From assembly GCF_003991155.1 (NCBI RefSeq), contig NZ_CP031293.1: 64,000 nucleotides of DNA, one strand, 5' to 3'. Source of the DNA: Escherichia coli. GTDB lineage: Bacteria > Pseudomonadota > Gammaproteobacteria > Enterobacterales > Enterobacteriaceae. The notes beneath the pieces are model-generated. The model worked only from the letters and a program-made list of their open reading frames with translations, did no database searches and was not told the DNA's origin. Every line of letters starts with the position of its first letter. Position 1 is the first letter of the stretch. Positions 35,543 to 43,975 of this stretch are shown here, piece by piece. The translations under genes were made by a program, and so were the position numbers.

Positions 35543-36631
35543 TCAACCACCGGCTTTCATTACCCATTCAGAGATAAATTTATTACCCGGTACTGGCGGA
35601 GAGTACAAATAGCCCTGCAAAAAGTGAACGCCTTTGCCGATCATTAAATCCGCCTGCTCCTGGGTTTCTACCCCTTCCGCCACGATACTCAGACCAGGCT
35701 TACGCGCCAGTTCGACAATATTGTCCACAATATGACCGGATATTTCGTCCACGCTCGCCATTTGCACAAATGACTTATCGATCTTAATAAAATCGACCGG
35801 GAACGCCTGCAAGTAACGATAGGTTGCATAACCCGTACCAAAGTCATCCAGCGCAAAGGTAATGTTGTGCTGATGAAGGCTGTCAAATATCGCTCTGGCT
35901 TCTGGCGTTACCGGAATAGGGTTACGTTCCGTTAACTCGAGAACCAGTTTGATTTTATCGTTACCTAATTTCTTAACCAGGTTCAGACACTCTTTTTCAA
36001 ATCCTGCGGCCAAAAAACATCCTGCCGAGACGTTGATGCCAATATGGAAATTATCCGGCAGCAAATGTTTTACTGGCATCAGAATATCCGCAGTCTGTTT
36101 CATCAGCTGGCGAGTCATTATGACGATAAGACCAGATGACTCCGCCAGAGGAATAAACTGATCCGGTGGGATAATTCCCGTTTGCGGATGTTCCCAGCGA
36201 ACAAGCACCTCACAGCCCGTCAGTACCCCAGTCTGCGCGCAGAAAACCGGTTGGATCCACGGTTTAAATTCATGGTTTTCCAACGCCAGACTGATGGCTT
36301 CAGGCGTGACGATATGGTGATAGTGATTATCATTAATATATTTGTGACTATTATTACCCGTGGCGGATATGATCTCCGGATTGTACTGAAAGAAAATATC
36401 CCGCCAGAAAGTAATATCGCTCTGAATCCCCAGTTTCTCAAAGAGCTGTTTCTTTTGATGTGAAATGGTCTTTGCACTGCGATTTCTGTACTGTGATATT
36501 TCTGTTACAGACATTCCCTGCATCAGCAGCTTGAGTAGCAGTCGTTCTTTCTCGGATACGCTACCAGGCAATGACAAATGAACCGTTGTACCGAACTCTT
36601 GCAGAAAAACACGAAAATCACATGAATTCAT
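35543..36631 (-). CDS. pdeL: c-di-GMP phosphodiesterase with LuxR-type HTH and EAL domain
   Basis: ORF 35543..36637; ATG at 36631 gives MNSCDFRVFLQEF (362 aa); EAL-domain motifs LVLELTE and DDFGTGYA. Confidence 0.9.
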   Translation of the reverse strand: MNSCDFRVFLQEFGTTVHLSLPGSVSEKERLLLKLLMQGMSVTEISQYRNRSAKTISHQKKQLFEKLGIQSDITFWRDIFFQYNPEIISATGNNSHKYINDNHYHHIVTPEAISLALENHEFKPWIQPVFCAQTGVLTGCEVLVRWEHPQTGIIPPDQFIPLAESSGLIVIMTRQLMKQTADILMPVKHLLPDNFHIGINVSAGCFLAAGFEKECLNLVKKLGNDKIKLVLELTERNPIPVTPEARAIFDSLHQHNITFALDDFGTGYATYRYLQAFPVDFIKIDKSFVQMASVDEISGHIVDNIVELARKPGLSIVAEGVETQEQADLMIGKGVHFLQGYLYSPPVPGNKFISEWVMKAGG

Positions 36632-37461
36632 GAACACACCTTTTATCTTTTATCGCTGTTCAGTATGAGTGATTACCTGTGGATTCCTGAGCACACATAA
36701 GGGGTAACCATAAACATTAGCGATGCCATACGTATAACATCCCACATCACTATCAAGAAGATTATCTTTACCTCTGATGCTCGCTCAAAAACAGTTACGC
36801 TAAATACCTTAAAAAGGTAATCACAAGTCAAACTCAGGAGATAATCACGCAAGAATGCAATATTAAAATTCAGATACTCATTTTTGGTAATAAAGAAGTA
36901 GTTGGACTATTTCGATATTTATAATTTCCCACTACGTATTGACGCCCATTCATGAGTAAAGGCGCATTATATGAATTTAACAATCCAGATCAACTGAAAA
37001 TACCTCAACCTCATAAACACATAGCGTCAACATTCAATGACATAATGAGTAAAGATGTTGGTTATGCATACACGTCATTACTCTATGCCTATCCCTTAAC
37101 AACCTGCTTTTTAAGACTGAATCCATTCAGCAATAGATAGCCAACATTATAACAATGACAATAAAAACAATATTTAAAACAATCAATAAAATATCAGGCA
37201 CAGACAATTAAACCTTAAACAACAAACGGTTACATTGATTTTAGTTGATTTGCGCTACGCGTTCCCCATGAATAAAGCGTCATTTCAAATTAGCACCAAT
37301 ATTTACATTAAATAAGACTAAGCTTATTGAACATTCACAACAGTCCAAACGTAGGTTTTGGGCTTCAATAGTTCTTTTCTTTTTTATTATCTGTTGCCTG
37401 GCAATCATCAATCGATACTAAGGGCTTAACTGTACAGATATAACGTATCAAGAGGTAAGAG

Positions 37462-37494
37462 AAACCGCGCCATATGCAGACATGGCGCGGTTTT
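37462..37494 (-). terminator. probable intrinsic terminator downstream of betT
   Basis: Perfect 12-bp inverted repeat AAACCGCGCCAT/ATGGCGCGGTTT around an 8-nt loop; on the minus strand the stem is followed by UUUCUCUU; 13 bp past the betT stop. Confidence 0.55.
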
Positions 37495-37506
37495 ATGCAA
37501 AAACAA

Positions 37507-39540
37507 TCACGCGTCCGGGAACATCACGCTATGGCCCGGCGCTTCACGATGGAGATGGATAAAGTTAAGATGCCGCTCGTACTGGTCAAGAATATCGGTG
37601 ATCACCTGCTCTTTGCTGTAGTCCATCAGGTCGTTGCCCTGGCTGCCTTCTAACAGGAAGGTTTCCAGCCGGTAGTAGGTCGATTTACCGCTACGTGCGC
37701 GGTAGGTAAAGCCCGGCACCGAATATTGCTGCGGCCAAATCTGATAGACAAAGTTTTGCTCTTCGCCCATATGCACCAACAAATCCAGATGCCCCAACTG
37801 TTGTCCCTCTTCCGGCGGCAGGCTTTTTAGCTCCACGTACGCGCCGCGCAACCGCAACTCCTGCGCCACTTCTTCCATTGCCGGGTAACAGACCGTCTCC
37901 ATCATCTGTTTAGTGTAACGCGTGCCCGGATAATTCATCAGGCGCGAGAGACGTTTTTTCCAGCTCAGGCGATCCTGAAGCCCCAGCGGTCGCGGTGCGG
38001 TATCGCGGTTGGCACTTTCACGGCGGTAATCTTCTACCTTCAGAGATTTATACAACCCCGCCATCACGAAGAAGATCACAAAGCTGAACGGCAGGCCCAT
38101 AATCACCGTGGTGTTTTGCAGCGCGGATATCCCGTTGGTCATCAGCATGCCGAGCGTCAGCAGGCCAATCGCCACCGACCAGAAGACGCGCAGCCAGCCG
38201 GGGGCGTCGCTGTTGATATCTTTAAGCTGCGAGGTGAAATTCCCCAGCACCAGCGCCCCGGAGTCCGCCGAGGTCACATAAAACAGCAGGCCAGTAATGG
38301 TGGCGACGGAGGCGCTAAAGGTAAACGCCGGATACTGCGCCAGCAGGCTGTAGAAGCCGCGCTCCGGATGGACCATCGCTTCCTCGGCAAATGCCGCGCC
38401 GCCGTGGATGATTTCATACAGCGCGCTATTGCCGAACACCGAGAGCCATAACAGCGTGAAGGTAAACGGAATAATCAACGTGCCCAGCACGAACTGGCGA
38501 ATGGTACGCCCACGCGAGATACGCGCCAGGAACAAGCCGACAAACGGCGACCATGCCACCCACCATGCCCAGAAGAAGAGCGTCCAGTTATTCATCCACT
38601 CAACCGGACGGTCGAAGGCAAAACTGTTGAGCGTCATGCCCATAAAGCGATTCACATAGTCGCCAACATTCAGCACCAGTGCATTAAGCAGGAACGAAGT
38701 GTCGCCCATAAACAACACGAAAAGGATCAATCCCAGCGCCAGCGCAACGTTAAGTTCCGATAACACGCGAATGCCCTTATCGACACCGGAGGTGACAGAG
38801 ATCGTTGCGATGATCACCGACAAGGCGATCAGTGCCGCTTTCGCCGCCATTGAATCGGGAATATCAAACAGTACGCTCAAGCCATAGTTAAGCTGCACCA
38901 CACCAATACCGAGCGTAGTGGCAATACCGAAGATGGTGCCGATCACCGCTGCAATATCCACTGAGTGACCTATCGGCCCGTTAATCCGTTTACCGAAGAT
39001 CGGGTACAGCGCTGAGCGGATGGTGAGCGGCAAATTATAACGATAGCTAAAGTATCCGAGCGCCATGCCCATCAGCGCATACATCGACCAGCCGGTTAAG
39101 CCGTAGTGAAACAGCGTCCAGACCATCGCCTGACGCGCGGCCTCAATCGTCTGACCCGCGCCTTCCGGCGGCTGCATATACTGCGTTACCGGTTCGGCTA
39201 CGGAAAAGAACATCAGGTCGATACCGATCCCGGCAGCAAACAGCATCGCCGCCCAACTCAGCAGACTGAATTCCGGTTTTGATTGTTCTGGCCCGAGCTT
39301 CACCGAACCAAAACGCGAACAAGCGATACAGACCACAAAGACAATATAGAGCGTTGCCGCCAGCAGATAGTACCAACCGAAGGTTTTAGAAACCCAGTCC
39401 AGCGTGCGGTCAATCCACAGGGCCGAGAAGTCGCGAAACAGGATCGTTGTCAGGGAAAACAACAAAATCAGTCCGGCGGAAGTGTAAAACACCACCGGAT
39501 TGATTTTGTCCTTTTCCCTGCTGTGTGAAAGGTCTGTCAT
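37507..39540 (-). CDS. betT: high-affinity choline transporter (BCCT family)
   Basis: 677-aa polytopic ORF MTDLSHSREKDKINPVVFYTSAGLILLFS; divergent from betIBA. Confidence 0.95.
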   Translation of the reverse strand: MTDLSHSREKDKINPVVFYTSAGLILLFSLTTILFRDFSALWIDRTLDWVSKTFGWYYLLAATLYIVFVVCIACSRFGSVKLGPEQSKPEFSLLSWAAMLFAAGIGIDLMFFSVAEPVTQYMQPPEGAGQTIEAARQAMVWTLFHYGLTGWSMYALMGMALGYFSYRYNLPLTIRSALYPIFGKRINGPIGHSVDIAAVIGTIFGIATTLGIGVVQLNYGLSVLFDIPDSMAAKAALIALSVIIATISVTSGVDKGIRVLSELNVALALGLILFVLFMGDTSFLLNALVLNVGDYVNRFMGMTLNSFAFDRPVEWMNNWTLFFWAWWVAWSPFVGLFLARISRGRTIRQFVLGTLIIPFTFTLLWLSVFGNSALYEIIHGGAAFAEEAMVHPERGFYSLLAQYPAFTFSASVATITGLLFYVTSADSGALVLGNFTSQLKDINSDAPGWLRVFWSVAIGLLTLGMLMTNGISALQNTTVIMGLPFSFVIFFVMAGLYKSLKVEDYRRESANRDTAPRPLGLQDRLSWKKRLSRLMNYPGTRYTKQMMETVCYPAMEEVAQELRLRGAYVELKSLPPEEGQQLGHLDLLVHMGEEQNFVYQIWPQQYSVPGFTYRARSGKSTYYRLETFLLEGSQGNDLMDYSKEQVITDILDQYERHLNFIHLHREAPGHSVMFPDA

Positions 39541-43444: not shown

Positions 43445-43975
43445 CTCAGGAACCTATCAGATTGAGAGTTACCGTTCTACTATGAGGACCGAATCCTTAT
43501 ATAAAACACTGAGGTAACTCTCATGCTTCATATCCAGTATTCATGATGCTGGCTTTTTGCTGATATTTAACCCGAACATTCCTGATACAGACTATTAATT
43601 CATTTATCTGCGGCAGATTTTATTTTCTGGATATATTATGAGTGAACAAATCAAACAGGATATCGATCTGATTGAGATTTTATTTTATCTGAAGAAAAAG
43701 GTAGATGAATACCAACAAAACTCTGGGCAGTAATAAACAGCATTCTGATAGAGAGTGCCTGTATAAAGCTGAAGTGACAATGACCGGGAAGGGAACCCGT
43801 TTTCAGGAATGGATGCCTGTCTTTTTCAATTTAAATATCCTGGCATTAGTAATGCCAGGATATTTACAGAAGAGCAGCATAACCATGACGGAACGGGGTT
43901 AAGTCAGGTTGTCCTAAACGCTATTTTCAACCTCGTATGCCTTCTTCAGGTTTATGTCCAGACTTCATATCTCTC

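Follow-up and report, generated by a model that had tools for sequence, protein, structure and literature searches.

The long A+T-rich interval between betT and pdeL of Escherichia coli is most likely the pdeL control region in its ehaA-less form

The window analyzed here is a stretch of 64,000 nucleotides (64 kb) from Escherichia coli (contig NZ_CP031293.1; positions are counted from its first letter). In all likelihood, the interval that separates betT from pdeL in this window is the E. coli pdeL regulatory region, in a form that lacks ehaA. Read on the minus strand from betT, the interval would consist of a terminator, a PdeL-binding palindrome (CIB, the Cra-independent box), the small gene yahV, a Cra box, a diverged second PdeL box (CDB, the Cra-dependent box), a sigma70 promoter and a leader of ~330 nt that ends at pdeL. 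The length of the gap results from two distances, ~330 bp from pdeL to the promoter and a further 150-360 bp from the promoter to the activator sites. No large gene is hidden in it. The gap is, however, not empty, as it also holds the switch that has been mapped in K-12 and that makes pdeL expression bistable in that strain. The pdeL control region is already known and has been studied in K-12, so that nothing in the window is new in kind. A comparative point is modestly new: the module of Cra box, PdeL box and promoter is shared with ehaA, and constraint among the K-12 elements is confined to the Cra box, the CIB and the promoter.

The original prediction pointed to an unusually long A+T-rich gap upstream of pdeL, and this description is accurate. 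The gap measures 869 bp up to a GTG at 36637 and 875 bp up to the RefSeq ATG at 36631. The boundary that had been given earlier (36638) goes back to this GTG, which is in frame and two codons upstream of the pdeL ATG. In a RefSeq genome that is 99.9% identical in this region, betT and pdeL are annotated on either side and the pdeL ATG corresponds to 36631. Both flanking genes are on the minus strand, betT at 37507..39540 (BCCT domain) and pdeL at 35543..36631 (GerE/LuxR HTH and EAL domains), according to the open reading frames and a domain search. The GC content of the interval is 34.8%, compared to 50.9% for the window, and this is the most A+T-rich stretch of the 64 kb. Only 0.14% of the 869-nt segments have a GC content as low as this, and each of them overlaps the betT-pdeL gap. 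In a crude gene map of the window, the gap ranks second in size (median gap: 102 nt), and the largest one is partly an artefact of a frame overlap between ykgG and ykgF. In a repeat search, nothing appeared in the interval apart from the terminator hairpin and a single pair attributed to chance. Another A+T-rich gap (~530 nt, 43445-43975, 31-40% GC), which is devoid of a long open reading frame, separates the ends of betA and ykgG; the corresponding place in K-12 is presumably that of ykgH. The features of the interval are listed in Table 1.

Table 1. Features of the betT-pdeL interval, with their positions in the window and the identity between the window and the haplotypes L008 and L009
Feature	Position	Strand	Basis	Identity to L008/L009
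betT-pdeL intergenic interval	36632..37506	-	ORF map and RefSeq pdeL start	
betT intrinsic terminator (hairpin at 37462-37493 plus a U-tract with interruptions)	37454..37493	-	fold and inverted repeat	
CIB, PdeL palindrome TTCAATAAG-N6-CTTATTTAA	37308..37331	.	EMSA oligos 4991/4997 and figure legend	92-96% (flanking DNA 58-67%)
yahV homologue, 24 codons, GTG start	37127..37201	-	alignment to annotated K-12 yahV (b4730)	53-61%
Cra (FruR) box GCTGAATGGATTCAG	37117..37131	-	same sequence as the box scrambled in the K-12 CB- reporter	100%
CDB position, diverged	37103..37116	-	scramble primers for AB2402 and AB2401	43-57%
62-codon antisense frame, not a gene	36952..37140	+	ORF list; no Shine-Dalgarno	
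sigma70 promoter TTGATC-16-TATAAT	36966..36993	-	best promoter-scan hit, 10/12 to consensus	91-97%
pdeL 5' leader, ~328 nt, inferred	36632..36959	-	promoter-to-ATG distance	
Leader uORF, product MWDVIRMASLMFMVTPYVCSGIHR	36671..36745	-	candidate short frame	
Last 114 nt of leader				87-89%
Other spacer segments				58-81%
pdeL third codon positions				82-88%

The betT terminator hairpin is indeed at the distal end of the gap, where it had been predicted. It has 14 pairs (-24.3 kcal/mol, z = -4.7), contains a perfect 12-nt inverted repeat and is followed by the tail UUUCUCUU. A strict consensus scan for terminators did not call this hairpin, from which we conclude that the U-tract is imperfect.

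In K-12, pdeL is co-activated by Cra and by PdeL itself (Reinders et al., bioRxiv 10.1101/2021.10.01.462762). PdeL binds to the CDB, which is adjacent to the Cra box, and to the palindromic CIB, which is farther upstream; a tetramer of PdeL that contacts the two boxes together is favoured when c-di-GMP is low. The K-12 promoter is silenced by H-NS, which competes with PdeL at the CIB, and pdeL is derepressed in an hns mutant. Scrambling of the Cra box, the CDB or the CIB in reporters resulted in less pdeL transcription, and the CDB was reported to be strictly needed for control by c-di-GMP (all from 10.1101/2021.10.01.462762). The interval is the very DNA that served as “pdeL promoter region” in the K-12 reporter fusions (primers 4398/4399, which extend from just past the betT stop codon into pdeL). 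The K-12 elements were placed on the window by means of the oligonucleotide tables of this preprint (bioRxiv 10.1101/2021.10.01.462762). If the K-12 mechanism holds for the window, H-NS would coat the A+T-rich DNA and silence the promoter, while Cra, bound to its box, would help PdeL to bind alongside. At low c-di-GMP, PdeL tetramers would connect the CDB with the CIB, remove H-NS from the DNA and bring RNA polymerase to the promoter. The outcome would be a bistable autoactivation of pdeL, which has been seen in K-12 and is extrapolated here.

The likeness to the K-12 control region is extensive. It comprises the locus, the gene order and the order and spacings of the elements. The interval as a whole is 93% identical, and neither the Cra box nor the promoter hexamers differ. 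The Cra box occurs once in the 64-kb window (0.02 matches expected) and is the same (15/15) in all seven haplotypes compared. The CIB matches its K-12 counterpart at 23 of 24 positions, and in both sequences it precedes the Cra box by ~195 nt; its core, ATAAG-N6-CTTAT, is found only once in the 64 kb. Divergence from K-12 is concentrated in 37050-37300, where the segment from yahV to the CIB is only 84-88% identical, and 36640-36900 is almost invariant. The other difference concerns the CDB. At its position, the window has TCTTAAAAAGCAGG and K-12 has TCTTAATGAGTGGG, with 10 of 14 nucleotides identical and 4 of 14 different; the half-site CTTAAT reads CTTAAA in the window, with the position being retained. 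Because the CDB is diverged here, and more so in other Escherichia lineages, PdeL autoregulation in the lineage of the window may not be identical to that in K-12. The more general expectation of a long control region with binding of nucleoid proteins and regulators is nonetheless confirmed by the K-12 experiments, and the Cra box, the CIB and the promoter are present in the window.

The promoter assignment is based on several lines of evidence. The hexamers TTGATC and TATAAT have been given for the spacer between betT and yahA (pdeL), which is also flagged for H-NS, in a genomic SELEX analysis with the sigma70 holoenzyme (Shimada et al. 2014, PMC3946193). In the K-12 study, the “RNAP interaction” primer 4283 ends just past the position equivalent to the -10 hexamer of the window, and the “P1” mutant of the authors has scrambled hexamer flanks but intact hexamers (10.1101/2021.10.01.462762). 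The promoter is 91-100% identical in all haplotypes compared, and in all seven it follows the Cra box at a distance of 153-156 nt. From consensus, SELEX and conservation, we infer that pdeL transcription starts at ~36957-36960. A literature search for a pdeLp/yahAp start site and for a small RNA or UTR of pdeL returned nothing relevant. Some observations count against our interpretation: the Cra site is centred near -165, which is unusually far for a direct activator, the “P1” scramble leaves the hexamers themselves untouched, and, as described above, the interval is only 93% identical to K-12 and has a diverged CDB. Visual inspection pointed to another possible promoter just past the CDB on the downstream side, which was dropped because of its poor hexamers and their lack of conservation in other haplotypes. 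The original prediction would have been refuted by one promoter near pdeL in an otherwise unbound interval; the conserved promoter is, however, ~335 bp away from the ATG, and the DNA upstream of it is bound by several proteins in K-12. The leader is inconspicuous as an RNA, the fold of 351 nt having a z-score of -1.5, which is not exceptional, and no paralogues of it were found elsewhere in E. coli.

It should be mentioned that the only GATC of the interval (36988-36991) overlaps the -35 hexamer TTGATC. Haplotypes of the ehaA type and those from outside E. coli have TTGATT at this position and thus no GATC. In a dam mutant, pdeL was among the most reduced genes (log2FC -3.08; PMC11741368).

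PdeL with both of its domains was found in Escherichia only, and 3650 of the 5426 complete E. coli genomes contain the interval (coverage >=80%). Two more distant haplotypes, L008 (Escherichia sp. E1V33) and L009 (labels with L are our own), lack the bet operon and have kept the spacer beside ykgG. Among the complete E. coli genomes, no haplotype of the L009 type is closer than ~75%. The genes betABIT are absent from L008, L009 and L011, and ykgG directly adjoins the region of the Cra box and the promoter; therefore, it is pdeL/ehaA, rather than betT, that the control region accompanies. When the window is compared to L008 and L009 (Table 1), evolutionary constraint appears clearly for three short elements only, which are the Cra box, the CIB and the promoter. 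The comparison thus sorts the K-12 model into conserved parts (these three) and parts that are not conserved (the CDB and yahV). A specially conserved leader or uORF was considered and rejected, since there is no excess of constraint: the identity of the last 114 nt (87-89%) is similar to that of the third codon positions of pdeL (82-88%).

According to a different interpretation, the interval is functionless xenogeneic filler, an H-NS-silenced leftover of horizontal transfer, and pdeL is driven by a short promoter beside the gene. Such filler would account for the fact that the interval is part of a replaceable haplotype block (from the betT terminator to about codon 105 of pdeL), that most of it diverges faster than synonymous sites, and that IS1 and IS3 have repeatedly inserted into it; it may also be noted that ehaA-type genomes have only 141 bp upstream of pdeL. 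We nevertheless consider this interpretation very improbable. The three short elements are 91-100% identical, at constant spacing, across haplotypes that are otherwise only 53-70% identical. The promoter scan revealed no promoter-like site beside the pdeL ATG, the only other minus-strand hit in the leader reaching 9/12. For K-12, the idea is contradicted by the scrambled Cra box, CDB and CIB reporters described above (10.1101/2021.10.01.462762).

As to the insertion sequences, IS1 is found at three points (L052, NZ_CP030919.1; L053, NZ_CP016182.2; L054, NZ_CP024275.1) in a spacer portion that corresponds to about 36750-37100 of the window. Two of the points are in the leader, ~100 nt and ~200 nt past the putative start, and one is between the Cra box and the promoter, with ~200 bp having been lost. 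A fourth genome (L006, NZ_CM151390.1) carries IS3 in the leader. H-NS-silenced A+T-rich regulatory regions, such as those of bgl and flhDC, collect IS insertions. The pdeL spacer resembles such regions, being A+T-rich, repressed by H-NS in K-12 and interrupted by IS1 or IS3 at >=4 points in other genomes.

The statement that the gap contains no credible open reading frame did not hold, as there is an intact homologue of yahV. The frame may have gone unnoticed because it is too short for a reader or for an ORF list with a 30-codon limit. In K-12 MG1655, synthesis of YahV was observed by chromosomal SPA tagging and immunoblotting (VanOrsdel et al. 2018, PMC6001520), and YahV has been discussed as a single-helix membrane peptide (PMC9976479). 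The window copy agrees with K-12 yahV (b4730) in position, strand, length and GTG start, and its TGA stop codon (37127-37129) likewise falls within the Cra box. The product in the window is MPDILLIVLNIVFIVIVIMLAIYC, with one predicted hydrophobic helix, and that of K-12, also a hydrophobic single-helix peptide, is VCDILLNVLNIVFIGIAIILVIIC; 17 of 24 residues match and 7 of 24 differ. All nine nucleotide differences between the two genes change an amino acid (9/9), so that there is no sign of purifying selection in this comparison. Four E. coli haplotypes retain the intact frame; it is absent from L008 and from all ehaA types, and it is different in L009. Pfam and NCBIfam contain no model for a YahV family. 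RefSeq labels are inconsistent: genomes of the K-12 type have “protein YahV”, another haplotype has “hypothetical protein” and window-type genomes have no annotation, with the frame being intact in all three. These comparisons characterize yahV as a young, weakly constrained and E. coli-specific small gene, which is still a recognised gene. For annotation, this means that the gap holds a small-protein gene which was validated in K-12 and which RefSeq has left unannotated in the haplotype of the window.

It may be asked if a further functional gene is hidden in the interval, either a small RNA, the 62-codon antisense frame or the leader uORF. In vitro run-off arrays showed that the betT-yahA spacer is transcribed in both directions, and thus also opposite to pdeL (PMC3141248). 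By eye, a perfect TATAAT that lacks a good -35 can be seen on the plus strand at 36920-36925, ~25 nt ahead of the 62-codon frame; the antisense transcripts of the run-off arrays (PMC3141248) may originate there. The 62-codon frame shares its DNA with three elements of the other strand: the promoter, the position of the CDB and the Cra box. It is intact in three E. coli haplotypes, among them K-12 and L725. We rejected it as a gene, because it contains stop codons in L008 and L009, has no ribosome-binding site and matches no Pfam family above noise; the original prediction had already noted the lack of a ribosome-binding site, which is correct, as no Shine-Dalgarno precedes the frame. For the uORF, the alignment indicates that frame and stop codon are kept in L008 and L009. 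However, L008 has an ACG in place of its first ATG, and conservation of the segment does not exceed that of the synonymous positions of pdeL. None of the peptides encoded in the interval matched a family. A small RNA, which had been envisaged for the gap, found no support: Rfam returned no match at E<=1 for either strand of 36300-37800, and the leader fold is, as described above, not exceptional. On naked A+T-rich DNA from H-NS-silenced regions, spurious promoters are expected, which weakens the argument from transcription in vitro. A further functional gene is thus improbable, and we retain the interpretation of the interval as the pdeL control region, with yahV as the small gene it contains.

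In 1399 of 5426 E. coli genomes, the same chromosomal slot has a different content: betT is followed by a spacer of 573 bp, ehaA (3984 bp), 141 bp and pdeL. The autotransporter gene ehaA is O-island 15 of E. coli O157:H7 (PMC8565820). Strains with this form include O157:H7, O104:H4, O111:H8, O55:H7 and many others. In most E. coli genomes that lack the interval, only the betT terminator matches, and this is the sole part of the interval that ehaA-type genomes have in common with it at high identity. The gene order in E. whittamii is ykgG, spacer, ehaA, pdeL, with the same Cra box, PdeL palindrome and promoter ahead of ehaA, and in E. albertii, fragments of ehaA are found beside pdeL. The ehaA spacer contains an identical Cra box, a promoter (TTGATT-16-TATAATGCGC) at 153-154 nt and one ATAAG-N6-CTTAT palindrome, and it shares part of the leader. 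It differs from the window in the place of the palindrome (39 nt after the start of the Cra box, compared to 195 nt before it in the window), in lacking a yahV frame and in its -35, which is without GATC. Local alignment of the two spacers gives a score of 84, compared to 41 +/- 6 (maximum 66) for dinucleotide shuffles; they are ~59% identical over 265 nt, with patchy similarity extending ~200 nt into the leader. The alignments argue that the two spacers are homologous and very diverged.

The terminator and pdeL are shared by the two forms. Homology stops at ~36642, just before the ribosome-binding site of pdeL, and resumes inside pdeL at reduced identity. When PdeL from the window is compared to that from O157:H7 (L007, 7579-8667), 22 of the 23 amino-acid differences are in residues 1-104 (codons 1-104, 36320-36631 in the window), which correspond to the HTH and the linker; the EAL domain hardly differs. 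In RefSeq, the O157 protein has no name beyond “EAL domain-containing protein”.

This raises the question of how the ehaA-less form came about. One possibility is that cassette and leader once headed ehaA, that ehaA was deleted in the lineage of the window, and that the adhesin promoter, orphaned together with its leader, became fused to pdeL. This is an account of origin, and it is compatible with the present function as the pdeL control region. It is backed by the position of ehaA between spacer and pdeL in the 1399 E. coli genomes and in E. whittamii, by the fragments in E. albertii, by the identical Cra box, the palindrome and the promoter at the same spacing, and by the alignment score and the patchy homology that reaches into the leader. 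We regard it as rather unlikely even so. The window has no coding trace of ehaA, either in a tblastn search with EhaA or with the ESPR model, and the proximal 130 nt of the leader have no counterpart in the ehaA locus. The data agree just as well with the opposite polarity, in which ehaA was inserted into a pdeL leader that already existed. Two diverged Escherichia lineages have the ehaA-less form, which indicates that this form, too, is old. Given that the two forms are only ~59% identical, allelic replacement by recombination is also possible.

An ehaA remnant in the leader of the window was rejected as a candidate: the tblastn matches of EhaA were noise, and there was no match to the Pfam ESPR model (5.6e-12 for the EhaA N-terminus as a control). 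The uORF product MWDVIRMASLMFMVTPYVCSGIHR bears a likeness by eye to the EhaA signal peptide, which was also rejected, as it has no ESPR match and the nucleotide identity is ~33% in a codon-by-codon comparison made by eye. The searches also returned two matches outside Escherichia. A Stappia sp. contig of 385 nt (L012) and a 5.1-kb metagenome-assembled sequence labelled Collinsella (L017) contain E. coli pdeL (99% identical) or the O157-type arrangement of betT terminator, ehaA and pdeL; both are probably assembly contaminations.

The comparison of the two forms suggests a single ancestral regulatory cassette, which precedes ehaA and pdeL in part of the genomes and only pdeL in the rest. Going a step further, we tentatively propose that the Cra box, the PdeL palindrome and the sigma70 promoter could be an ancestral Escherichia cassette, which drives ehaA, and not pdeL directly, in about a quarter of E. 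coli and in E. whittamii, and that the leader in the window could be an orphaned ehaA leader. If this is true, the PdeL switch, which senses Cra and c-di-GMP, would control a surface adhesin in EHEC O157:H7, O104:H4, O111 and others. This is a testable prediction outside the window: sensing of c-di-GMP and of carbon flux would be linked to an adhesin in EHEC-type strains.
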